Below are positions 38,302-50,275 of a DNA stretch of 64,000 nt, in pieces. The notes below the pieces were generated by a model, which was given only the letters and a program-made list of their open reading frames with translations, was not told the DNA's origin and did no database searches. Position numbers and translations under genes: made by a program. Numbering within the stretch: the first letter of the stretch is position 1; each line of letters opens with the position of its first letter. Source of the DNA: an uncultured Acidobacteriota bacterium (GTDB taxonomy: Bacteria; Actinomycetota; Acidimicrobiia; Spongiisociales; ZC4RG35); the NCBI GenBank assembly GCA_963828465.1, contig CAWHEU010000002.1, forward strand, positions 151,273 to 215,272, in the 5' to 3' direction.

Positions 38302-39183
38302 TCAGATCCCGAACATGACCTCGCGCAGGCTGATCACACTTGCCTCGAGCGTCACCGGGTCGAGACGCATCGATCCAAGACGGAGACCCTTCATCCCTTC
38401 GCCGGTGTTGGTCATCACCCTGAGCCCGTCTTCCTCGTTACCGAGGATCCCGAGTCCCAGGCAACCACCGTCCTCGTCCTGTACGCCGACCAGCACATCG
38501 TCGAGCCGTCCCAGGTTGAGACCCATCGGAAGCGTCGGTGCGAAGACCGTGGGCCGGACCTTCCACCGATCGAGTGGCGGAGCCAGCGCCCGGGCAAAGG
38601 ACTCGGTCCTCCGCTGGGCTCGCTCGTCAGGGGAGATGGGCATCACATTGGGGTCGGCGGGGGTGACGGTCACCTCCATGCCGAGGAACCGGCGCAGCAT
38701 CCCGACCACCGGCTCCATCTCACCGCCACGTTGCAGGGCAACGACCTTGTCCGGCCGACACAGCTCCGCCTTGTGGTACTTGAGAGTCTCGCCGGCGACC
38801 CCGGAAACGACTGCGGTGGTATCGAGGATCACGAGGTCGGCCATCCCCCTGGCCACGTCGACCATCGCCGCTGTGGCGACGACCTGTTGCAGGACGAGGC
38901 GCGCTGGGGAGATGGTGCCCACGAAGTGGAGCCGGTCCGGTGTCGCCACGTCATCGAGGTCCTCTGGAGTGCGAAGGATCTTCAACCCGACACACGCCGG
39001 GGGCCCGACGGTCGAGTTGCCCACGTCGGCGTCGACGATCGCCACGGTCCGGCCGGCGCCGAGGGCGAGACGAGCCGCCTGTAGGGCCAGGGTCGTCTTC
39101 CCCGTGTCGACGCTGCCCAGGAGCATCGCCACATTCGCACGGGACACCTCCCGCGCGACTCCGTCGTGGCTCGTCTCAGACAT
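38302..39183 (-). CDS. Clp1/Grc3-family polynucleotide 5'-hydroxyl kinase
   Basis: GSVDTGKTT (Walker A), VDADVGNSTVGPP, ILDTT, ERAQRR lid motif. Confidence 0.8.
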   Translation of the reverse strand: MSETSHDGVAREVSRANVAMLLGSVDTGKTTLALQAARLALGAGRTVAIVDADVGNSTVGPPACVGLKILRTPEDLDDVATPDRLHFVGTISPARLVLQQVVATAAMVDVARGMADLVILDTTAVVSGVAGETLKYHKAELCRPDKVVALQRGGEMEPVVGMLRRFLGMEVTVTPADPNVMPISPDERAQRRTESFARALAPPLDRWKVRPTVFAPTLPMGLNLGRLDDVLVGVQDEDGGCLGLGILGNEEDGLRVMTNTGEGMKGLRLGSMRLDPVTLEASVISLREVMFGI

Positions 39184-39204
39184 CGCGGCAATATAGGACC
39201 ACGC

Positions 39205-40038
39205 ATGACCGACAACGCACTCCCCATCAGCTTCCTGTCCGACTTCGGTCACTCCGACGAGTTCGTAGGCGTCGTGCATGGGGTGCTGGCCAAGCTGGCG
39301 CCGGAGTCACGGGTCATCGATGTCGGCCATGGCACTCCGCGGGGTGATGTGAAGGCCGCCGCCCTCAGTCTGACCCGTGCCATCCAGTATCTCCCGGAAG
39401 GAGTCGCCCTCGTGGTGGTCGACCCCGGCGTCGGCTCCGAGCGCAAGGCGCTGGCCCTCGAGACGGACTGGGGTTTCTTCGTTGGTCCGGACAACGGGGT
39501 GCTGTCGCCAGCGGTGGCGATGGTGGGCGGGGCCCGGGTGATGGTCTCGATCGACAATCCCGAGGCGAGGATTCCATCGCCGGGCGAGACCTTTCAAGGC
39601 CGAGATGTATTCGCCCCGGCGGCTGCCCTCCTGGCCTCGGGGGAGGCCGCGATCCAGGATCTCGGTCCCGAGGTGGGTCCCGATGCCGTGCAGCCATTGC
39701 TGCTCCCTCTACCGGAGACGCAGGGAAGCCTGGTTACCGGCGAGGCGTGGTGGGTGGATCGGTTCGGGAACGTTCAGACCAACATCGGTCCCGACGACCT
39801 GGCCGCGGTAGGTGTCTCGCCCGGGTCCGTGTTGACGATGAAGGTGGGCGCCACTCTTCACACGATCACGTGGGCTGTCACCTATTCCGATGTGGAGCCC
39901 GGGGAGGCGCTGGTCCATGTCGATTCGGCCGGGCTGATTGCAATAGCGATTCGGGAGGGCGCAGCCGACGAGGAGTTGAACCTGTCCGCGGGCGTGGCGG
40001 TCACCCTGGCTGGGACAGGATCGACGTCAGCTGGATGA
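39205..40038 (+). CDS. SAM hydroxide adenosyltransferase / chlorinase-fluorinase family (DUF62)
   Basis: FLSDFG, VVDPGVGSER, VGPDNG, TFQGRDVFAP, VDRFGN, DSAG. Confidence 0.9.
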   Translation: MTDNALPISFLSDFGHSDEFVGVVHGVLAKLAPESRVIDVGHGTPRGDVKAAALSLTRAIQYLPEGVALVVVDPGVGSERKALALETDWGFFVGPDNGVLSPAVAMVGGARVMVSIDNPEARIPSPGETFQGRDVFAPAAALLASGEAAIQDLGPEVGPDAVQPLLLPLPETQGSLVTGEAWWVDRFGNVQTNIGPDDLAAVGVSPGSVLTMKVGATLHTITWAVTYSDVEPGEALVHVDSAGLIAIAIREGAADEELNLSAGVAVTLAGTGSTSAG

Positions 40039-40589: not shown

Positions 40590-41636
40590 CTACGAGGCCG
40601 GTGCAAGGGCGGCCGCGGCGCCGCTCACCGTGGTCGTCGTCTCTCCCTCGGCAGGCGCCTCTTCGCCCGGTGTGGTCTCTCCCGGAGCCTCTCCCTCCTC
40701 GCCCTCTGCCGGGGCCAGGCCGCAGTCGGTGAGCGTCTCAGCCGGGTCGGCGCCACCGAAACGGGCCCGCTCGAAGGCGACGACCGCGGCGAGTTGCTCC
40801 TCGGTCAGAGTCGAGCCGAACGACGGCATCCCTCCGGCGACGGGCTTGTTGGTGTCGCCATACGTCGACCGGCCTTCGCCCTGGAATCCGTCCGAACCGA
40901 GGGTGACCCACTCGATGTGATCGGTGCAGGACCCGAAGGTGGTGACGACGCCTGAGAAACCGGGCCCGACCCCGCCTTGGCCCTGGGCGCCATGACACCC
41001 GTCGCAGTTGGCCACGTTCTGATAGACGTCCTCGCCCATGGCGATGAAGTCGGCTCCTCCTCCACCTGCTCCCGAGCCGGTGAACTCGGTGCCGTCACAG
41101 TTGACTACCTGGCCGGTGATGACATTGGTGGAGAGCTCGGTGGCCTCGCCGCACTCACCGGTGGCGGAGCCGCCCAGAGCGAAGAGGGCGAAGGCGGGAA
41201 TGATCAACATGACCGCGGCCAACCAGCGGGGGATGGCGAGATTCGTCCTCTCCCTGATGCCGGCGGTGGGGACCGTGATCACTTCGGGAAGCCCGGCAGC
41301 CTCGGCGGCGGTCACCTCCGCCGGGACCGGAGAGCGCGTCACCGGGCCAGAGGGCACGGGGGCAGGCGCCGGGGTGACCGGCTCGGCGGGAACGGCTTCG
41401 GGTGCGGCCTCCTCCTCAGGCTGGGTCCCGGCCTCGGGCTCGGCCGTCGGCTCCTCGGGCGGCGCTTCCTCATCCGCAGCGGCGGGTGGAGATCCGGCGA
41501 CCAACCCGCCCCCGGCCCAGGCTGCAAGCACCTCGTCGACCGTCATCCCCGTCTCGGCAGCCCGGGCAGCAGCCGAGCGCTGGACGATGGACTCGGGGAC
41601 GCCGAGGGCTTCAGCGGCGGCGCTCAGGTCACTCAC
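40590..41636 (-). CDS. membrane-anchored monoheme cytochrome c with N-terminal shared module
   Basis: CDGCH, GGMPSFG axial Met, one TM helix, Pro/Ala/Glu linker. Confidence 0.85.
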   Translation of the reverse strand: MSDLSAAAEALGVPESIVQRSAAARAAETGMTVDEVLAAWAGGGLVAGSPPAAADEEAPPEEPTAEPEAGTQPEEEAAPEAVPAEPVTPAPAPVPSGPVTRSPVPAEVTAAEAAGLPEVITVPTAGIRERTNLAIPRWLAAVMLIIPAFALFALGGSATGECGEATELSTNVITGQVVNCDGTEFTGSGAGGGGADFIAMGEDVYQNVANCDGCHGAQGQGGVGPGFSGVVTTFGSCTDHIEWVTLGSDGFQGEGRSTYGDTNKPVAGGMPSFGSTLTEEQLAAVVAFERARFGGADPAETLTDCGLAPAEGEEGEAPGETTPGEEAPAEGETTTTVSGAAAALAPAS

Positions 41637-42480
41637 GACGGGGCCGCCTCTCCCTCGGTGGCAGGCGTCTCTCGGGGCTCTCCTCGGCAGGCTCCTCTTC
41701 AGTTGGCTCACTAGGCGCTGTCTCCTCGAGGGTGGCCGACTCGACCAGATACGCCACCAGGGCATCGAGATCTTCTGATGAGAGGGATAGGGCGGGATGG
41801 TTGTCGAGTCCGGCGATGATCGCCTCGATCTGACTCGCCGTGATCCGCGCCCCGACATTGGACAGATCCGGGCCGAAACGGCGTGATCCCAACACCTGAT
41901 TGGTGTCGCTCAGCGACACCGCCCCAAGACCGACATCCGCGACAACGGGACGCACCATCTGGGTGTGACAGGAGGCACAACCCACAGATTGGTAGATCTC
42001 CTGCCCGTGGAGGGCCGTCTCGGTGTAGGGCAGGTCACTGGTCCGTGCCCCCGGATTCTCGGTGGGGAGGGCCGGCCCCACCACTCCTACCAGGAAGAGG
42101 GCAACGAACAGGCCCACGGCTCCGACGAGGATGGCGATGGGGTTGTCGACCTCACCGACCAGGATCGGTGGCTTGCCGGAGAGAGACCGCGCGGCGGTAA
42201 CCGGGGCGGCGGCGGGCGTCTCGATGACGGGTGTTGGCGTCGTGGACGGGGTGACCGCTGGCTCTGCGGGCTCGTCGGCCTCTGCCGCCGGCGCCTCGGC
42301 GGCCTCCGGTTCAGCGGGAGCGGGCGATGCCGGTGGCGGGATGTCACCTCCACCGGCCCAGGCTGCCAGCACGTCGTCGACCGTCATGCCGGTCTCCTCC
42401 GCCCGAGCAGCGGCGGAGCGCTGCACGATCGCTTCGGGTATTCCGAGGGCAGCAGCGGCCGCAGCGCTCAGCTCACTCAT
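41629..42480 (-). CDS. cbb3-type oxidase subunit II (CcoO/FixO)-like cytochrome c
   Basis: GQEIYQSVGCASCHTQMVRP, GSRRFGPDLSNVG, DALVAYL. Confidence 0.8.
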   Translation of the reverse strand: MSELSAAAAAALGIPEAIVQRSAAARAEETGMTVDDVLAAWAGGGDIPPPASPAPAEPEAAEAPAAEADEPAEPAVTPSTTPTPVIETPAAAPVTAARSLSGKPPILVGEVDNPIAILVGAVGLFVALFLVGVVGPALPTENPGARTSDLPYTETALHGQEIYQSVGCASCHTQMVRPVVADVGLGAVSLSDTNQVLGSRRFGPDLSNVGARITASQIEAIIAGLDNHPALSLSSEDLDALVAYLVESATLEETAPSEPTEEEPAEESPERRLPPRERRPRRE

Positions 42481-43924
42481 CGGCGTCCTCGTCGCTGTCC
42501 GGGTCGGGGCCGTAGACCAGAACTTCCTGGGGGACGGCCCTGCCACTCGTGACCGTCCCGATCACGGTGGCGGCGTACGCCAGCTGTCCGAGGAAGGCCA
42601 CGATGCCGAATCCAACGGCCACGAGCATCAGCACATCGGCCGCCCCGGCCCCGGCGGCCCAGCCCTCCCCGGCGTTCACGTAGGCGGCGCTGTTCGACCC
42701 CGCCACCCACGAGTACCCGCTGACCAACCCGGCCGCGATCATGCTCACCCCGACACCGCCCACCCCTACGACGGTCCATCGATTGAAAGACCGAGGACGA
42801 TCCAAGGTGGCCGGCTCGCGGCCCGATATCCGGGGCAACGCCTCGAAGACGACGCCGGCGGCGAGCAGCACGCCGACGCCGTACAAAGCCACGTATTCGA
42901 TGGCTTCCCAGTAGGCGGTGAGTGCGGTCACCGATCCGACCGAGGGGAAGGCAGCAAAACTGGCGAGGATGGCGACTGCCACCCCCAGGTAGAGGCCCAC
43001 GATGCCAGAGGTGACGCCGGGCTTGTCCCTCAACTTCTCCCAGTGCCCTTGGAGGGTGAGCGAGGCATTGGCGGCATTGGCGAGGGCTGCAATGGGGAAG
43101 GCCAGGCCCAAGGCGGCCGACACACCGTCGATCCAACCCGGCCCGGGGCCAAAGACGAGTTGCGCCGAGCCCCACCATGCGGCGGCGAAGCCGAGTGACC
43201 AGAAGCCGACTGAAGCGAGCTGACGGGAGGCAAGGGGGATATCGAGCTCCTTGACCAGGGTGTAGTAGAAGAGCCCGCTGCCCACGGTGAATCCCCAGAG
43301 CGTGACGAATCCGGCGGAGAAGAAAAGGTCGGAGTACGCCGCACCCAGCGAGCCCACGAAGGGCAGGCTGCCAACCGCATACACGAAGTACAGCAACGGC
43401 AGCCAAGCGACGCCGCCCATCACGAACCAGAGGGTCACGAAACTTCGCTCCTCCTCCCGTCGCCGGATGGTCATCATCGTGACGGCGAAGGGAATGGTCA
43501 GCACCGCAAGCATCGGGAGGTGGAGCCACCAGGGGAGGCCAAACGGCTGTCGACCCTCACCGAGACCGAAGGCCACTGCCAGAAGGTCGAGCACGACGAG
43601 ACCCGAGACGCCGAGGAGCCCGAGGTAGGCCAGTTCCTTCCGCCACAGCCGGGCGCCGGTCAGCCTGGGGAGGACGTAGTAGATGCCACCTGCCAGCGTG
43701 AGCACGAGAAAGCCCAGCATGACCGTGATGTTGGCCATCGACTCGGCGCGGCCGTAGCTGATCGGGGACAGGCCGGCGAAGCGCAGCGAGAAGAGGGCGA
43801 TCAGTTGGAAGACGCCGGCCAGCACCAGGAAGAGAGCCCCTACCAGGAAGTGAGCGACAGCGACGCGGTCCTCATCTCCGGCCCCGAGGAGGGCCCTGAT
43901 GTCTGCAGTTTGGGTTGCGGCCAA
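42473..43924 (-). CDS. cbb3-type oxidase subunit I (CcoN)-like membrane protein lacking heme/CuB His ligands
   Basis: CcoN-like segments SYGR, YYVLPRLTGARLW, TIRRREEERSFVTLWF, FYYTLVKELDIPLASRQLASVGFWSL, LTLQGHWEKLRDKP, LPRISGRE; only 3 His, none at ligand positions. Confidence 0.75.
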   Translation of the reverse strand: MAATQTADIRALLGAGDEDRVAVAHFLVGALFLVLAGVFQLIALFSLRFAGLSPISYGRAESMANITVMLGFLVLTLAGGIYYVLPRLTGARLWRKELAYLGLLGVSGLVVLDLLAVAFGLGEGRQPFGLPWWLHLPMLAVLTIPFAVTMMTIRRREEERSFVTLWFVMGGVAWLPLLYFVYAVGSLPFVGSLGAAYSDLFFSAGFVTLWGFTVGSGLFYYTLVKELDIPLASRQLASVGFWSLGFAAAWWGSAQLVFGPGPGWIDGVSAALGLAFPIAALANAANASLTLQGHWEKLRDKPGVTSGIVGLYLGVAVAILASFAAFPSVGSVTALTAYWEAIEYVALYGVGVLLAAGVVFEALPRISGREPATLDRPRSFNRWTVVGVGGVGVSMIAAGLVSGYSWVAGSNSAAYVNAGEGWAAGAGAADVLMLVAVGFGIVAFLGQLAYAATVIGTVTSGRAVPQEVLVYGPDPDSDEDADE

Positions 43925-43973
43925 GGGTTCCCTCGTCGCGGAACGGGACGGCGGGAGCATAACTACTTCTGTT

Positions 43974-44034
43974 TCTCCCCCCAGCGAGCGCAGCGAGCGT
44001 TGGGGGGAGTACCGCCGAAGGTGGGGAGGGGGGC
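43974..44034. repeat. REP/CIR-like palindromic intergenic element
   Basis: ctcccccca...gcgagcgcagcgagcg...tggggggag-taccgccgaaggtggggagggggg, a double-hairpin architecture typical of small intergenic repeats; one copy in the window. Confidence 0.5.
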
Positions 44035-44085
44035 CGAGCGGGGACTCCAGGGTTCTCTAACGTGCCCCGGGTTGTGGTAGAAACG

Positions 44086-44103
44086 ACGTGAACAGGTATA
44101 CAA
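44086..44103. promoter_or_regulatory. possible Rex operator in the divergent respiratory promoter
   Basis: ACGTGAA-CAGG-TATACAA vs consensus TTGTGAA-N4-TTCACAA (10/14). Confidence 0.4.
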
Positions 44104-44122
44104 CCGTGCCCGAAGACGAGAG

Positions 44123-44728
44123 ATGTATCGCCTCGCAGAACTGAGCGACAGCAGACGCAAGACCATCGGATGGGGACTGCTCGGTCTGGGCTTCGTCGGC
44201 CTCGTTGTGGCGGTGATCTGGATCCACTACACCAGCCTCCCGCCCGAACAGGACGCTGGCATCTTCGATTGGATACCAAGCAACCACTTGCTGAAAGGTG
44301 TCGGCTATCTGGTTGTGTTCGGCGCCTCCCAGATGCTCGTGGTAGGAGCACTGTTCGTCTGGGTGCTCAACCAGAGAATGACCTGGGCCCGTGCCCTCTT
44401 CGCCTCTTTCGTAACCTGGATCGAGCTGGTCATCATCTTTGGGATGGTCCCGTCGGAATGGCTCAACTTCGCCCAGACAGATCTCGACTGGTCGTCACAA
44501 CGGGTGGCGGTCACCATCCCACCCGTCCTGGTGTTGGGCAACGACGTACAGCTCAGCTGGGCTGCCATCAAGGACTCGATCTCGATGGGCTACCACCTGG
44601 TGATGCTGGCGGCCGCGGCAGTGTTCGCCCTTCAGCTGCAGAAGATGAAGAAAGGCCCGCCTGCTTCCGCCGACAAGGCACCTCCCCGCTCACCGTACGG
44701 GCGGCCGCTGGTCAGGGGTGAGGGCTGA
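44123..44728 (+). CDS. 4-TM membrane protein, first gene of the bc operon
   Basis: Hydrophobic ORF with GMVPSEWL and C-terminal SPYGRPLV; TGATG coupling to the ferredoxin. Confidence 0.75.
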   Translation: MYRLAELSDSRRKTIGWGLLGLGFVGLVVAVIWIHYTSLPPEQDAGIFDWIPSNHLLKGVGYLVVFGASQMLVVGALFVWVLNQRMTWARALFASFVTWIELVIIFGMVPSEWLNFAQTDLDWSSQRVAVTIPPVLVLGNDVQLSWAAIKDSISMGYHLVMLAAAAVFALQLQKMKKGPPASADKAPPRSPYGRPLVRGEG

Positions 44729-45177
44729 TGCCCAAGGGTGTCGTCGACGAGACTCCTCCGTACCGAGACGATTATCAGCTCGCTGTCGTCGAGGGCGACT
44801 ATTTCACAGACAAGCTGCGGCCGAAGCAGTTCCTCCACATCGACCAGTCGGAGTGCATCCTCTGCGAGGGCTGTGTCGACATCTGCCCCTGGAAATGCAT
44901 CCACTATCTCTCCTTGGACGCGATCACCGAGGGCGTCAATGTCGACCATCCCGATGAGGACCCGCAGAACCTGGGGTTCTTTGTGGTCGACGAGGACGAA
45001 TGCACGCGTTGCGCCCTCTGTGTCGACCGCTGCCCCACCAATGTGATCACATTGGGCAAGTTCGAGGGGTCCCTGGCCGAGCAGGCCTCAGAGCTCGGGC
45101 TCGACCGCCGGCCCTGGGATTTCGACACCGGGCAACGTGACTTCAAGAATGGATACGCCTACGGGATGCGCTGGTAG
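44728..45177 (+). CDS. 2x[4Fe-4S] ferredoxin
   Basis: [12 protein letters not shown] and [12 protein letters not shown]. Confidence 0.9.
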
Positions 45178-45185
45178 GAGGAGGA

Positions 45186-45962
45186 TTGGCGAACGGCAAC
45201 GGTAAGACCGGTATCGGGGAAAAGATCAAAGATGCGAACGACAAACTCTGGGGCTCCCAGGTTGTCGAATCGATCCTCCGACCCGGCTCGCCCTTCAAGA
45301 AGGGCTACTCGGACAGCCCGAGAAACCGTTCATACGTGGTGATGAACAACGTGCTCTATCACCTCCACCCGGTGAAGGTGAAGCGGCACGGCGTGAAGCT
45401 GTCCTACACGCTGTGTCTGGGTGGCCTCAGCTTCTTCCTCTTCATCCTCCTCACCATCACCGGCATCTTCCTCATGTTCTATTACACGCCGTCGGCGGAG
45501 ACCGCCTACGCCGACATCGAAGCGCTGTCGACCAATGTGGCCTTCGGCTCCCTGGTGCGGAACATGCACCGATGGGGTGCCCATCTGATGGTCCTCTCGG
45601 TGTTCCTCCACATGAGCCGGGTCTTCTATCACGGCGCATACAAGCCACCGCGGGAGTTCAACTGGGTCGTGGGCGTGGTGCTCCTCTTCCTCACCCTGCT
45701 GCTCTCCTTCTCCGGCTACCTCCTGCCTTGGGACCAGTTGGCGCTGTGGGCGGTCACGGTGGGCACGAACATGGCCGGCTTCGTTCCGGTGGTGGGCAAT
45801 GAGGTGAAATTCGCCCTATTGGCGGGGGTCGAGGTGTCGGGCGCCACCCTCCTCCGCTTCTACGTGCTGCATGTACTTGCTTTCCCGTTCATCCTCGTGA
45901 TCTTCCTTGCCGTGCACTTCTGGCGGGTGCGCAAGGACGGCGGCATCTCCGGGCCCCTCTAA
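45186..45962 (+). CDS. qcrB: cytochrome b6-like subunit (split cytochrome b N-terminal domain)
   Basis: YTLCLGG (heme ci Cys), [54 protein letters not shown]. Confidence 0.92.
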
Positions 45963-45972
45963 AGGAGTCGTC

Positions 45973-47127
45973 ATGACAGAAATTCCAGAGAGTCTCCTCA
46001 GGAGGTCGGCGGAGGCCAAGGCCAAGGCATTGGGCCTGCCCGTCGAACAGGTGTTGGCCGAGATGAAGGGTGAGGCCCCGCCGACGCCACCGCCGTCGGC
46101 AGAGCCCGCGCCGGCGGATCAGTCCGAGGAGAACGTGGCCGCTGAGATGGAGGAGTCCGCAGAGCGTTCCGCCGAGATCGAGGAGGCAGTGGAGGCAGTC
46201 GACGACGAGCCTGCACCGAAGGAGGAGGTACCGGCCGAGCCGGCAGCCGAAAGCGAGCCAGAGGTCGTGGCCGAAACCGATGCCGATGTTCCCCCCGCCC
46301 CACCCACCGAGGCGCCGCCCGTTGCATCCGAAGAAGACGGAGCGGATGCTTCCTCCCCTGAAGGAGGAGATGTCGCCGAAGGCGACGGAGGGGGGCCGTC
46401 CGCTGATGATGAGGCCTCGCCTGAAACTGAAGTCGAGCCGGCCGCCGCCGCTGTGGCCACCACGGTCGAGGATCGACCAGCCCCGCAGGGAGATGGAGCG
46501 GTCGACGGCGACGGCACGGGCAACGGGTCCGGAAACGGCGCGGGCAAGGTCGCGGCCGTGGTCAGCACCCGTCCCACGGTGCCACCGAAGGGGACGCCCG
46601 AGGGGGTGCGGACGCAGCGTCTGCTCACCGTGGTCAAGGCCAGGGCCATCCAGACGGTCAAGGCCGAGCCAACGGACAAGGTCAACACGTGGCCCCACCT
46701 GATGCTCATGGAGTTCGGGGCCTTGCTGGCGATCACCGGCCTCGTAGTGATCATGTCTGTGGTCATTCACTCACCGCTGCTCGACCCGGCCAACTTCAAC
46801 GCCACTCCGAACCCATCGAAGGCACCGTGGTACTTCCTCGGCCTCCAGGAACTGCTCTCCTACTTCGATCCCCAGATCGCAGGGGTGACCATTCCCACGA
46901 TCACCGGGTTCATTGGCTTCTGGATAATCCCCTACGTCGACAAGAACCCCTCGACCCGGCCCAGCGACCGCAAGTTCGCCATCGCCCTCTACTCGGTGTT
47001 CCTCGCGGGGGCCGCGACGCTCACGATCTTCGGTGTTCTCTTCCGGGGCCTCGGCTTCAACTTCTCCTATCCCTGGAAGGACGGTGTCTACTTCGACGAC
47101 TTGAAGGACTGGGTGCAATTCGAATGA
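45973..47127 (+). CDS. cytochrome b6f subunit IV-like protein with long N-terminal extension
   Basis: TWPHL, PANFNATPNPSKAPWYFLGLQELL, PYVDKNPS..PSDRK; about 210-aa acidic N-terminal extension. Confidence 0.85.
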   Translation: MTEIPESLLRRSAEAKAKALGLPVEQVLAEMKGEAPPTPPPSAEPAPADQSEENVAAEMEESAERSAEIEEAVEAVDDEPAPKEEVPAEPAAESEPEVVAETDADVPPAPPTEAPPVASEEDGADASSPEGGDVAEGDGGGPSADDEASPETEVEPAAAAVATTVEDRPAPQGDGAVDGDGTGNGSGNGAGKVAAVVSTRPTVPPKGTPEGVRTQRLLTVVKARAIQTVKAEPTDKVNTWPHLMLMEFGALLAITGLVVIMSVVIHSPLLDPANFNATPNPSKAPWYFLGLQELLSYFDPQIAGVTIPTITGFIGFWIIPYVDKNPSTRPSDRKFAIALYSVFLAGAATLTIFGVLFRGLGFNFSYPWKDGVYFDDLKDWVQFE

Positions 47128-48003
47128 CCCTGACCAACGCCGCCCTCATCGCGGTCGCCGTGGTGGCGATCCTCGGGGCGGCCGGGGCATTTGCCGTCGC
47201 CTATCGCCGCTCCCAATCCGTCGAGAAAGCCGATCCGCTCGCCGGGGTCTCGTCAGAGACCCGCGCTGCCGACCGGTCGTCCACCGCCGTTCTGATCCCG
47301 CCCCGTGTAGAGGAGGCCGAGGAAACCGTCGAGGAAGAGGCCCCCGAGGAGGAGCCCGAACCGGCTGAGGCGGAAGAGGATGCGGTCGTCGAGATCCTGG
47401 AGACCCAGCGGATCGTCGAGGTGTCGCCGGAGGAAGGCGGAGTCAGCCGCCGTCAGTTCTTCAACAGGGCGATCGCTGCGACCTTCGGGACTTTTCTCGC
47501 TGCTCAGGGTCTCTATTACCTGGCCTTCTTCTGGCCCAAGCTGACCGGTGGCTTCGGCGCCGACATCGACGCCGGCCCAATCACCGATCTGCAAACGCAG
47601 GTGTTCACCCCCGACGGCGCCGTGCTCCCGCTGTTCATTCCCGAGGCGCGCGCCTACCTCGTCCCTGACCTCTGGGGAGCTATCCGCCCAGTTCGAGGGC
47701 CAGGGCGTGGAGACCGACGGCCTGATGGCGCTCTACATGCGATGTGTGCACCTCGGCTGCCGGGTGCCGTGGTGCGCCCCTTCGCAGGGATTCGAGTGCC
47801 CGTGTCACGGGTCGAGGTACAACGCCATTGGCCAGTATTTCGGCGGCCCTGCCCCTCGAAACCTCGACCGATTCGTCGTAGAGAACCAGGGCGGCAACCT
47901 CATCATTCGCACCGGCACCATCATCCAGACGCCCCGGGCGCCGGTGTTGACCGTCCAGTACCCGCAAGGACCTAGCTGCATCAGCGCAGTGGCCGAGGCA
48001 TGA
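47124..48003 (+). CDS. qcrA: Rieske [2Fe-2S] subunit (frameshift near 47668)
   Basis: SRRQFF Tat-like motif plus TM helix; CVHLGC, CPCHGS, GPAPRNL. Confidence 0.88.
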
Positions 48004-49923
48004 CCGCCAACATCATCACGGTCATCGCCTTGGTCGCAGGGATCGCCTGGCTGGGCATGCTCTTCGTCTCGGCCATCCGCAACCGGGGTGGCGAGGAGGT
48101 CGCTCCCAATCTTCGACCCGGTATCGACGACGAGAAGATCGAGACCCGGCGGTTGGAGGGAGGACAGAAGGCGGCCATCGCCTTCTCCGCGTTCCTCGCC
48201 ATTTCGCTCCCGCTCTATTTTCTCACCGAGCAGCAGCGACAAGAAGGCTTCGTCGTGGAGTTCGCCGAGGGCTCGATCGAGCGTGGCCGCCACCTCGTGG
48301 AAGAGTTCGGCTGTTTCAACTGCCACGGCCCGGAGGGCACCGGTGGGGTGGCCCCATATGTCGAGAAGCGCTCTGGTATTGCGGTCGAGTGGGCGGCTCC
48401 ATCGCTCAACGACGTCTTCTTCAGATACGAACAGGACGAGGTCAATTTCTGGGTCACGTACGGCCGCGGCAACACGCCCATGCCGGCATGGGGCATCCCC
48501 GGCGGTGGGCCGCTCAACGACCAACAGGTCGAAGACGTGGTCAACTATCTGGCGACCATTCAGGTCACCCAGGACGTGAACCTGTCCGACGTCGAGCCCG
48601 GGATCAGCAGCGCCCTGGACAGACTGGCCAATGCCGACGCCACGGTCGAGCTCGCCATCCTCGACCAAGAGCAGGTGGTGGCTCAGATCGAGTCGGCGCC
48701 GGCGGATGTCGCTCTGGTGGCTCCACTGGCGACACAGGCGAGGGAGGCGCTGGACGGAGCCGGCAGCGGCATCGATACCGATGCTGACGGCATCTCCGAT
48801 GCCGCCGAGACCGAGCTCAGTGAGATCTCGGCCGAGGCGGTCGCGGCGTTCCAAATCATGGAGCCGATCGCTCTCGACCCGGAGACAGCCGACGCCGAGC
48901 TGGCTGACGAGGCCCTCGCGGCCCTCGAGGTCGCATCGGAGACCGACCCCATTGTCAGGACGAACATCGGGGCCATCGAGACCGCCATCGAGGAAGGGAC
49001 ACTCGACCCGGCCATCGGGCTCAGCCCGGCCTCATTGGCCGGCCCTAGAAGAGACACGTGCCGCGGCGGAAGAGGCCGGCGTCGAAGCCGCAGGCCCGAT
49101 CGAGGATCTGGCTGGTGCAAATGAGTTGGTCGCCGCGCTGGAGGCCGCCGCAGCTGCAGATCCAGCTGTCGAGGGTGCGGCCGACCTGGCGGCCGAGGCG
49201 ACGGCGGCGATCGAGGAAGGCTCCGACCCCGATGGCGACGGATTGTCGACTGGCGCCGAGAACGCAATCAACGGTCAGATCGAGGCCGCCATCACGGCCA
49301 CCACGCCGGCCGCGATCACTTTGGTCACTCTCGATCCGACCAACCCGGCCTCGGTCGGCGGGGAGCCTGACGCCACGACTGCCAACACATTGGTGGGCAA
49401 TCTGGAGTCGCTATCTACCACTCTCTCGGTCACCGAGCAGAACCAGGACGCTGTCCTCGAGACCGCAGAGGGCGGTCTGGTCTATCTCGAGGAATCCCAA
49501 CAGGCCGAGCTCTATTCGATCGATTTCGCCGGCGTGGCGGAGGCGATGGCGTCTTCGCCCGAGGAGGCAGAAAGGGCGGTTGGTCTGTTCAACTCCAACT
49601 GCGCCCGGTGTCACACCGCCGGTTACAGCGCTGGCGTCCCCTACACCCAGGAGGCGGGCTCCGGAGGCTTCGGGCCGGCGCTGTGGGACGGCCGCCCGAC
49701 GGTGCAATTCGGCGACGCGAACCAGGACCCGGCGCAGGACCTGTTGGTCCAGTTCCTGATCAGGGGCTCCGAGGCCGAGACGCCCTATGGTCTCAACGGG
49801 TTCGGCACCGGCCGGATGCCGGCCTTCGGTGCCAGCCTCAGCATGGAGGACATCGAGTTGCTCGCCCGATATCTGCGGGGTGGGAACATGGACGGGAAGG
49901 AGGCCGCCGTTGTTCTTCCGTGA
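48000..49923 (+). CDS. large diheme cytochrome c subunit (frameshift near 49043)
   Basis: CFNCH...TPMPAWG and CARCH...RMPAFG separated by a long acidic insert. Confidence 0.85.
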
Positions 49924-50275
49924 GTTCTTCCGGTCTTTGTTCTCGGCCAACCTCTTCGTCACCGGGGTCATCCTCACTATTGCCGCGGTGGTCTTGTTCT
50001 ATGGCTCGATTTACCTCTTCAACTACACAAACCTCGGGAAGCGGCTGGGGTTCCTGGTCACCGGCGCCGCGGTGTTCGGGTGGCTGACGATCACCTCGAT
50101 GTTGTTCGTGGTCTACGCCCCACGTGGCCCCAAGCCGGCCGACATCGAGGGGCTCAACGCATTCGAGATCAGGATCATCCCGATCACCTACCTGCTCGTA
50201 TCGCTGGTGCTCTTCCTCGCCTTCCTGGTGGCGCTACACCAGTACGAGGAGGTTCAAGAGAAATCCTCTGCCTAG
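49910..50275 (+). CDS. small 3-TM membrane protein, last gene of the bc operon
   Basis: GSIYLFNYTNLGKRLGFLV..GW motif; overlaps the cytochrome c stop. Confidence 0.7.
   Translation: MFFREFFRSLFSANLFVTGVILTIAAVVLFYGSIYLFNYTNLGKRLGFLVTGAAVFGWLTITSMLFVVYAPRGPKPADIEGLNAFEIRIIPITYLLVSLVLFLAFLVALHQYEEVQEKSSA

Follow-up and report, generated by a model that had tools for sequence, protein, structure and literature searches.

Among the respiratory genes of a member of the Acidimicrobiia there are three, in two divergent operons, whose products begin with a similar stretch of sequence, which raises the question of whether these N-termini are copies of one domain and, if so, what such a domain might do for the membrane proteins that carry it. 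The window considered here is a stretch of 64,000 nucleotides of this organism's DNA, and an earlier note on it had placed a shared module at the head of a CcoO-like protein, a cytochrome c and subunit IV of a bc complex. All three copies were found where they had been placed and proved to be homologous, but the picture of three copies stood only in part, in that the subunit IV copy lacks helix 1 and a fourth copy had been missed.

Copies of the module and their genes

The four copies are as follows.

42346..42480, minus strand: module copy 1, 45 aa, three predicted helices, N-terminal end of the FixO-like protein (profile match E 1e-22)
41505..41636, minus strand: module copy 2, 44 aa, N-terminal end of the membrane-anchored cytochrome c
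45973..46074, plus strand: module copy 3, 34 aa, helices 2 and 3 only, N-terminal end of bc subunit IV
Outside the window (G000 contig C24, L001:7765-8958), minus strand: module copy 4, heading a membrane protein without an assigned family

The start of the FixO-like gene is the ATG at 42480 (minus strand), which overlaps the stop codon of the CcoN-like gene as ATGA, and that of the cytochrome c gene is the GTG at 41636 (minus strand), which overlaps the FixO-like stop codon as GTGA; subunit IV starts with the ATG at 45973 (plus strand), with the Shine-Dalgarno site AAAGGAG 6 nt ahead of it. The start codons being set in this way, the modules are genuine N-terminal parts of the proteins, and the possibility raised earlier that the true starts lie downstream of the modules is ruled out.

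In an alignment of the four genomic copies 13 columns are invariant. Over the 34 residues that run from the Leu-Gly ahead of helix 2 to the module's end, copy 2 is identical to copy 1 at 30, with 13 of these 30 codons differing, and the subunit IV copy of the window is 46% identical to the FixO-like copy. The conserved residues comprise a Pro-Glu cap, Arg-Ser-Ala, small residues and a Trp, together with a Leu pattern, and every one of the 25 aligned modules has the Ser of the Arg-Ser pair. Ala-rich sequences from a genome of about 65% G+C could in principle be alike by chance or low complexity, or their likeness could stem from mis-called start codons, but the probability of such a reading is negligible. 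A profile built from 20 modules, with every subunit-IV-type copy excluded, found subunit IV of the window at E 6.4e-8 among 54,493 six-frame open reading frames of the genome, where the next match stood at E 0.11, and the subunit IV similarity is thus significant by profile comparison. In 5.29 million six-frame residues a degenerate motif matches these 4 copies and nothing else, where 5 shuffles gave 0-1 matches, and 31 of 31 relatives keep the module (29 of 29 if the unpublished G018 and G021 are set aside); together with the overlapping stop and start codons and the Shine-Dalgarno site, these results refute both chance and mis-called starts. The three N-termini in the window and the fourth on another contig are evidently copies of a single autonomous domain, about 45 residues long.

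The genes concerned, and those that head their operons, are these.

41629..42480, minus strand: FixO-like monohaem cytochrome, 283 aa, with module, linker, one TM helix and CxxCH at residue 168
40590..41636, minus strand: cytochrome c, 348 aa, with module, linker, one TM helix and CxxCH at residue 211; Pfam Cytochrom_C / Cytochrome_CBB3
45973..47127, plus strand: cytochrome b subunit IV (PetD-like), 384 aa, with three TM helices beyond the linker by hydropathy
42473..43960, minus strand: CcoN-like membrane protein, heading the operon with copies 1 and 2; Pfam COX1 E 8e-19
44123..45962, plus strand: head of the divergent bc operon, encoding a 201-aa membrane protein without known function, a 2x[4Fe-4S] ferredoxin and cytochrome b6 (Pfam)

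The FixO-like protein fits membership of the FixO family by its Pfam match, which extends over no more than residues 158-236 of the longer open reading frame (E 1.7e-12; 47.7 bits, cutoff 29.6), and by its CxxCH behind one TM helix, but at 47.7 bits against the NCBIfam ccoO cutoff of 200.65 it is not an equivalog. Subunit IV belongs with PetD/Cytochrom_B_C by its profile match at residues 294-377 of the longer open reading frame (E 3.8e-5; 24.3 bits, cutoff 20.7), its three TM helices and the position of its gene directly 3' of cytochrome b6.

Aligned to 9g83_t, subunit I of a cbb3 oxidase, the CcoN-like protein has Ala, a gap, Ala-Gln and Glu/Tyr in place of the haem and copper ligand histidines. 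With all six positions non-His or gap, positions which we take to be the ligands of haem b, haem b3 and CuB in CcoN of cbb3 oxidases, the CcoN-like protein was rejected as a catalytic cbb3 oxidase. At E<=1e-20 it was found in 43 of 201 genomes, including two module-less ones (G036 and G042), and in 1 of 47 genomes of family f16, though the f16 locus L032 has one by Pfam; it evolves too fast for this threshold, and we therefore make no claim of co-occurrence with the module.

Predicted fold and topology

AlphaFold2 (25-row alignment) predicts the module as a compact three-helix bundle, with helices at residues 3-12, 16-30 and 34-42 and a pLDDT of 93.5, instead of the two-helix unit supposed at the outset. 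RHH domains consist of an N-terminal beta-strand and then two helices, and the PSBD is a two-helix fold. The likeness to these two that had been suggested is not supported: E3_binding (PSBD, PF02817) gave no match among whole proteins (E<=0.1) or 25 isolated modules (E<=10), no RHH family of Pfam matched any of the 25 modules (E<=10), and the predicted fold has no beta-strand, so that the module is not an RHH domain. RHH chains in VIA-align reached Z 2.9 over 32 residues only, and PSBD chains were absent from the Foldseek and VIA-align rows among the matches listed, an absence that is not decisive.

Searches of Pfam (whole proteins at E<=0.1, 25 modules at E<=10) and NCBIfam over the first ~45 residues returned no family, only scattered sub-threshold matches (DUF3562, MIF, LPD22, HTH_23 and others) that were confined to 1-2 of the 25 modules apiece, and no PDB sequence matched the module. 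The best Foldseek match, at E 0.77, was to designed toroids and assigned no family, and a wide VIA-align search gave a best Z of 5.6 to a designed protein and then about 4.3 to ANTAR domains and RPA; these matches to the predicted model are generic helical ones and not convincing fold matches. An ESM Atlas feature search gave no usable match to the module, and the listings returned by a full-text literature search held no description of it. The domain is uncatalogued and new.

Each copy is followed by a linker.

42166..42345, minus strand: FixO-like linker, Pro/Ala/Glu-rich, residues 46-105, 60 residues, net charge -7 (composition, hydropathy)
41223..41504, minus strand: cytochrome c linker, Pro/Ala/Glu-rich, residues 45-138, 94 residues, net charge -12
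46075..46713, plus strand: subunit IV linker, very long and acidic, residues 35-247, 213 residues, net charge -36
G000 contig C24, minus strand: linker of the fourth-copy protein, Pro/Ala/Glu-rich, 109 residues, net charge -10

By composition and hydropathy the first hydrophobic helix comes after the linker in all four carriers, and CxxCH lies after the single TM helix in both cytochromes (FixO-like and cytochrome c). The modules, themselves net acidic (-1 to -4), should face the cytoplasm on flexible acidic linkers ahead of the first membrane helix, and the N-terminal placement and cytoplasmic facing first proposed are supported by the starts, the linkers and the hydropathy topology.

Carriers, distribution and a shorter tag

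Matches to the module at E<=1e-3 number 457 among 1,835,955,588 representative proteins, with up to 7 matched stretches per protein. In 141 of the best 150 of these 457 the first module lies within the first 10 residues. Classified by C-terminal similarity, the same best 150 of 457 include 26 cytochromes c, 15 FixO-like proteins, 12 subunits IV, 8 fourth-copy membrane proteins, 2 small bc-operon membrane proteins and 1 gene-call fusion; 86, mostly short fragments, are unclassified. Pfam, run on 73 of the longer carriers, found Cytochrom_C/CBB3 in 22, FixO in 11 and Cytochrom_B_C in 6, with sub-threshold matches only in 4 and none in 30, and no separate soluble module-bearing protein occurs among the best 150 of 457. 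Carriers bear 1-7 modules in tandem; in G026 the FixO domain is fused to the CcoN-like protein and has no module, and the next cytochrome c has three. Carriers are interchangeable, the module-bearing subunit varying between lineages, and every classifiable one is by similarity either a membrane subunit whose gene belongs to the divergent bc / pseudo-cbb3 pair or lies close to it, or else one of two unassigned membrane proteins. A fixed stoichiometry of four modules per genome was rejected, since counts run from 1 to 12.

Module matches are present in 110 of 201 genomes of the class Acidimicrobiia; strong ones (best E 1e-12 or better) occur only in the order to which the window belongs and in the sister family f16 (47 of 47), and the remaining families have few matches, all of them much weaker (best E 1.9e-7 or worse). 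A short tag, corresponding to the central helix of the module alone and sitting directly behind the initiator Met, occurs in 186 of 201 class genomes and, in a sample of the phylum, in 20 of the 22 genomes from the class and in none of the 279 from other classes. At the module-less loci L119, L120 and L038 subunit IV and a nearby cytochrome c begin with the same tag, the two being identical at 20/25, 21/23 and 11/25 residues, respectively, with 12, 12 and 6 differing codons among the identical residues. The module family is restricted to the Acidimicrobiia, and the central-helix tag is older, class-wide and common to subunit IV and a divergently encoded cytochrome c. The tandem repeats (up to 7), this tag and the concerted evolution of the copies had also escaped the earlier note. 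Related contigs, as retrieved with a 4-row module alignment, are titled as Acidimicrobiia/Actinomycetota MAGs, with some deposited under other labels.

The gene order at the head of the bc operon is kept in a 1-Mb relative and in another family. Its ferredoxin, the operon's only cytoplasmic protein, was rejected as a specific companion of the module on account of its distribution, as it is found in 178 of 201 class genomes, module-less families included, and a search at E<=1e-25 did not find it in five module-bearing ones (G023, G150, G080, G169 and G218).

Concerted evolution and possible roles

Among 11 lineage representatives the identity of FixO and cytochrome c modules within a genome (0.78) exceeds that of orthologues (0.66) in 53 of 55 pairs, and one pair of modules is identical at the nucleotide level; codons for the same residue differ between module copies in 46% of cases on average. 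The copies within a genome are kept alike by gene conversion and purifying selection, and at least part of their concerted evolution comes down to ordinary conversion between adjacent genes, for which no common partner is required. It might also be that nothing specific is bound, the cap and acidic linker serving as a polyelectrolyte brush or spacer, or the cassette having spread by conversion with little selective meaning. The extreme acidity and variable length of the linkers, the free variation of copy number and carrier, and the active conversion evident from nucleotide-identical copies agree with this, but it is very doubtful: purifying selection that holds residues identical across so many differing codons is strong, the roughly 1-Mb genomes of f16 retain the module without exception in those sampled, the short tag is conserved class-wide, and a spacer needs no invariant Pro, Arg-Ser or Leu pattern.

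The most likely explanation, to which we assign a probability of about 0.5, is that the module is an interchangeable, tethered docking cassette for one common partner on the cytoplasmic side. Respiratory membrane complexes would display a variable number of identical handles on long tethers, the handles would bind one common partner, be it a soluble or peripheral protein or the surface of a neighbouring complex, and binding would bring that partner in or hold the complexes close to one another. The homology of the copies and their true starts, the confidently predicted three-helix fold, the linkers and topology, the restricted and interchangeable carriers, the distribution and the concerted evolution are all consistent with docking. 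Against it, fold stability alone could explain the Pro-Glu cap, Arg-Ser-Ala, the small residues and the Trp, the ferredoxin is not a consistent companion, gene conversion accounts for part of the concerted evolution, the fold searches gave only generic helical matches, and many of the best 150 of 457 matches have no assigned carrier.

In 2-oxoacid dehydrogenase E2 chains the PSBD and lipoyl domains sit on Ala/Pro-rich swinging arms. The module resembles this case, where the role is one of docking, as a very small autonomous helical domain on Ala/Pro/Glu-rich flexible linkers in variable tandem copies; it differs in having no E3_binding match, three full predicted helices and a place at the cytoplasmic N-terminus of membrane proteins. 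The ribosomal stalk protein bL12 has an N-terminal docking domain and an Ala/Pro-rich hinge and is present in several copies. It too offers a small N-terminal helical docking unit, a hinge and variable copy number per assembly, but the Pfam, Foldseek and VIA-align searches gave no match to it and the cellular context is another. Bacterial respiratory supercomplexes are held together by membrane and periplasmic contacts, and we know of no description of supercomplex organisation acting from the cytoplasmic side. In bc1-cbb3 supercomplexes, membrane-anchored cytochrome cy and CcoP are reported to be tethered c-type cytochromes, electron carriers that anchors and flexible linkers keep close to complexes III and IV, and a FixO/CcoO-like protein and a further c-type cytochrome are encoded behind a CcoN-like gene as they are here (PMC7876108, PMC10556555). 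Those systems have a periplasmic flexible linker and a catalytic oxidase, whereas here tether and handle are predicted to be cytoplasmic and the CcoN-like protein is without metal ligands.

The common partner might instead be the module itself. Modules or tags that bind one another would corral the four carriers into a loose supercomplex or membrane patch, with multivalent networking through tandem copies, which is the oligomerisation idea of the earlier note. Copies within a genome are more alike than orthologues, and the subunit IV and cytochrome c tags of module-less lineages are near-identical within a genome and differ between genomes, as like-binds-like would predict; a valency of 1-7 on long linkers and the lack of a separate soluble carrier among the best 150 of 457 matches fit as well. 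We nevertheless consider self-association unlikely, as gene conversion alone can explain the likeness within genomes, an acidic module on strongly acidic linkers does not favour it, and the subunit IV copy of the window is both divergent from the FixO-like copy and without helix 1. A two-copy complex prediction of the module (25-row alignment), which scored 0.07 against a mark of 0.42 with controls not run, bears neither way on it.

A further reading draws on the position of the module. In one report the stromal N-terminus of chloroplast b6f subunit IV (PetD) is a regulatory contact for the STT7 kinase, so that an n-side N-terminal stretch of the same subunit family serves as an interaction site and not as a passive tail (PMC13287000). 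The comparison is one of position and role only and claims no sequence relation; the PetD site, as that part of the report has it, is a short peptide with a phospho-threonine, with no folded domain, long linker or tandem copies, and is not shared with cytochromes c. By analogy with this regulatory site in another b6f-type complex, the module could be a tag for biogenesis, quality control or regulation, read by an assembly factor, protease adaptor or kinase that handles the subunits together. The strictly N-terminal position, the short ancestral form right behind the initiator Met and the invariant Ser of Arg-Ser speak for such a tag, but internal tandem copies have no free N-terminus, recognition needs no very long linkers, and no kinase, protease or chaperone gene is conserved beside the operons in the loci examined, so that this reading is rather improbable.

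A broader form of the docking reading is possible, with the odds somewhat against it, namely that Acidimicrobiia use a lineage-specific cytoplasmic 'address code' in which handles bind a hub or each other, building a respiratory megacomplex or recruiting a cytoplasmic enzyme. A short helix present in most of the class would, in one clade, have grown into a three-helix domain and been repeated as many as seven times, on bc complex subunits, a ligand-less pseudo-cbb3 cytochrome scaffold and further membrane proteins. If true, an electron-transport chain would here be organised on another principle, through one tethered cytoplasmic handle common to subunits of separate complexes. The host group is widespread and mostly uncultured, and since the module persists in all 47 sampled streamlined ~1 Mb genomes, where little dispensable sequence survives, it is likely to matter for physiology. 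Current annotation leaves unexplained N-terminal extensions where there is a well-delimited domain family whose short precursor is found throughout the class, and this family is a concrete target for pull-downs and cryo-EM.

Two of the carriers lie outside the known respiratory subunits. The fourth-copy membrane protein matches no Pfam or NCBIfam family, and its AlphaFold2 model (8-row alignment) has a pLDDT of 68 and no Foldseek match at E<=0.001; its gene adjoins a GHMP-kinase gene, an adjacency kept in one same-genus locus only. The second is represented in the window by a gene that carries no module here.

49787..50275, plus strand: small membrane protein, 3' of a dihaem cytochrome c, its true start lying inside the open reading frame (candidate start codons)

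A homologue of this open reading frame, P0001, 45% identical to it over 116 aa at the C-terminus (E 4e-30), bears 7 tandem modules.

The module, its starts and its tethers

The module is a conserved cytoplasmic domain of predicted fold, carried on long acidic tethers, that varies in copy number and has interchangeable carriers. Two divergent operons occupy the region of the window in which an earlier note had flagged three N-termini as sharing it, and these N-termini are real, their start codons being well supported by stop/start overlaps and by an AAAGGAG sequence.

Operons and start codons in the window
Minus strand, in order: CcoN-like protein (42473-43960), FixO-like monohaem cytochrome, further membrane-anchored cytochrome c
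Plus strand, in order: unknown membrane protein, 2x[4Fe-4S] ferredoxin, cytochrome b6, subunit IV, Rieske protein, dihaem cytochrome c, small membrane protein
42480, minus strand: ATG of the FixO-like gene, ATGA overlap with the preceding stop
41636, minus strand: GTG of the cytochrome c gene, GTGA overlap with the FixO-like stop
45973, plus strand: ATG of the subunit IV gene, AAAGGAG ahead of it

The divergent pair is kept in L032, a locus from a 1-Mb genome of the Acidimicrobiia family f16, and in L035, from another family.

When a profile of the three copies was run on their own genome, as the earlier note had proposed, it recovered one more copy (E 3e-17), at the head of a membrane protein on contig C24.

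Fourth copy
L001:7765-8958 (contig C24), minus strand: 397-residue polytopic membrane protein of about seven helices

This protein matched no Pfam or NCBIfam family and no fold. The start of its gene overlaps a GHMP-kinase-like gene at that gene's end, with aa3-type COX1/COX3 genes about 4 kb away. The likeness of subunit IV to the other modules is significant by profile: when the genome's 54,493 six-frame ORFs were searched with a profile of 20 modules from which every subunit-IV-type copy had been left out, the window's subunit IV module was recovered at E 6.4e-8, the next match being at 0.11. A degenerate motif of the module likewise has exactly four matches in 5.29 million six-frame residues, against none or one in each of five shuffles.

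The module is predicted to fold as a compact three-helix bundle (residues 3-12, 16-30 and 34-42; mean pLDDT 93.5, AlphaFold2 with a 25-row alignment), of which the window's subunit IV copy, by alignment, has helices 2 and 3 only. Each of the four modules is followed by a Pro/Ala/Glu-rich linker (60, 94, 213 and 109 residues, with net charges of -7, -12, -36 and -10), and in all four carriers the first hydrophobic helix comes after the linker. That the module serves a non-specific physical role is the least probable of the functions weighed here. Haem is attached outside the membrane, and in both module-bearing cytochromes the CxxCH lies beyond the single helix, so their modules must be cytoplasmic; the established topology of the PetD/cytochrome b C-terminal family places the N-terminus of subunit IV on the same side.

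Distribution, carriers and novelty

In samples of related, non-independent genomes, the module was found in all 31 relatives (29/29 without the unpublished G018 and G021), mostly in four copies each, and 110 of the 201 class genomes sampled gave matches. Those with a best E of 1e-12 or better take in almost the whole of the window's own order and 47/47 genomes of f16, a family with genomes of about 1 Mb; in other families of the class matches are rare and far weaker, at a best E of 1.9e-7 or worse. Among 1.84 billion representative proteins only 457 matched at E<=1e-3, and a single protein could have as many as seven matched stretches. The titles of related public contigs are those of Acidimicrobiia/Actinomycetota MAGs.

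Carriers among the best 150 of 457 matches, classed by similarity of their C-terminal parts
Cytochrome c: 26
FixO-like: 15
Subunit IV: 12
Fourth-copy membrane protein: 8
Homologue of window ORF 49787-50275: 2
Gene-call fusion: 1
Unclassified, mostly short contig-end fragments: 86

As far as they have been classified, carriers are confined to the membrane subunits encoded in this neighbourhood of respiratory genes. The first module begins within the first ten residues in 141 of these 150 proteins. Pfam named cytochrome c (22), FixO (11) and Cytochrom_B_C (6), and no other family, among 73 of the longer carriers; four had sub-threshold matches only and 30 had none. The carrier can change, as is seen in G026, a genome in which a FixO domain fused to the CcoN-like protein is without a module and the next cytochrome c has three. 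In the database protein P0001, seven modules precede a domain that shares 45% identity (E 4e-30) with the window's small membrane protein, the one encoded next after the dihaem cytochrome c.

The earlier note had likened the module to the PSBD and to RHH helices, comparisons that are analogies at most, since the searches gave no Pfam family over the module (whole proteins of the region at E<=0.1; 25 isolated modules at E<=10), no NCBIfam coverage, no PDB sequence match (best E 0.24) and only generic helical matches by fold. Of these the best in Foldseek had E 0.77, and VIA-align placed a designed protein first (Z 5.6), followed by ANTAR domains at about 4.3. The ESM Atlas held no usable match. 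An RHH is ruled out because the predicted fold has no strand. The domain is not described in the literature covered by full-text searches, and we rate it a new domain family that would vary on an arrangement already known, tethered docking modules.

Concerted evolution, an older short form and proposed function

FixO-like and cytochrome c modules were compared at 38 unique loci with both (the unpublished L016 left out), reduced to 11 lineage representatives. Mean identity is 78% between the two modules of a genome and 66% between orthologues from different lineages; of 55 pairs of representatives, 53 have the higher identity within the genome. The L032 pair is identical even at the nucleotide level and two other pairs differ in four codons, which shows gene conversion; 46% of the codons for identical residues differ on average, which shows long-term purifying selection on the peptide. 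The copies thus act like cassettes that can replace one another and share a single function. The concerted pattern by itself is compatible both with a shared partner and with self-pairing; a homotypic tether, in which modules pair with each other, is on the whole unlikely.

Module-less families retain the bc operon, and its subunit IV opens, right after the initiator Met, with one or two short helices matching module helix 2. A nearby cytochrome c opens with the same tag in three of five such loci examined, on the opposite strand in each and, in L119 and L120, beyond the CcoN-like gene (FixO-fused in L119). The two tags of a genome share 20/25 residues in L119, 21/23 in L120 and 11/25 in L038, of which 12, 12 and 6, respectively, are encoded by differing codons. 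A 24-position tag profile matches 186/201 class genomes and, in a phylum sample, 20/22 class members versus 0/279 genomes of other classes. Because the tag occurs in module-less loci and in most of the class sample but in no sampled genome of other classes, its sharing by subunit IV and a cytochrome c is a class trait; the three-helix domain, its spread to more subunits and its multiplication are elaborations within one clade.

Among the closest working analogues of the module are the bL12 stalk and, on E2 chains, the swinging arms with their PSBD and lipoyl domains. By analogy with such small domains on Ala/Pro-rich linkers, the module would be a docking cassette that binds a common partner, a statement to which, taken whole, we assign a probability of about 0.5. 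The ferredoxin, the only cytoplasmic protein of the operon, was considered as a consistent companion of the module and rejected: it is present in 178/201 class genomes, module-less families included, and five module-bearing genomes gave no match to it. Also among the closest analogues are the periplasmically tethered cytochromes of bc1-cbb3 supercomplexes and the stromal N-terminus of PetD, which is reported to be regulatory (PMC13287000). A biogenesis or regulatory tag is a reading we hold slightly less likely than the homotypic tether.

Other features of the neighbourhood

The CcoN-like protein (42473-43960, minus strand) has only three histidines in 495 residues and, aligned to a cbb3 subunit I, lacks all six of what we take to be the haem/Cu ligand positions of cbb3; it looks like a non-catalytic scaffold and is nonetheless conserved in relatives, the 1-Mb genome included. 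At the head of the bc operon (44123-45177, plus strand) an unknown 201-aa membrane protein is followed by the 149-aa 2x[4Fe-4S] ferredoxin, whose nearest NCBIfam match, far under cutoff, is NuoI-like, and which suggests a cytoplasmic-side Fe-S subunit on the Rieske/cytochrome b complex.

The start codon of the Rieske gene (47124-48003, plus strand), an ATG at 47124, overlaps the stop of subunit IV. At the N-terminus of the protein (47124-47400) there is an additional hydrophobic helix and, before an internal twin-arginine-like motif, a Glu-rich stretch of strongly acidic character, which gives the same complex a further long acidic segment in the cytoplasm. The Fe-S-binding C-terminal half lies in a different reading frame (ORF 47548-48003), an apparent frameshift near 47,700 that could reflect either an indel in the assembly or a genuine break. 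The dihaem cytochrome c (48000-49923, plus strand) is divided between overlapping frames (48000-49124 and 48631-49923), each of which encodes one cytochrome c domain; the sensible reading changes frame in a GGCCGGCCC run near 49,040-49,050, and in relatives the gene is one ORF of 474-499 aa. A SAM hydroxide adenosyltransferase gene, named from the L032 homologue (Pfam SAM_HAT_N/C) to which the window ORF was likened by eye, lies a few kb from the pseudo-cbb3 operon in both genomes (window 39166-40038, plus strand; L032:12001-12804, minus strand), which is probably plain synteny.
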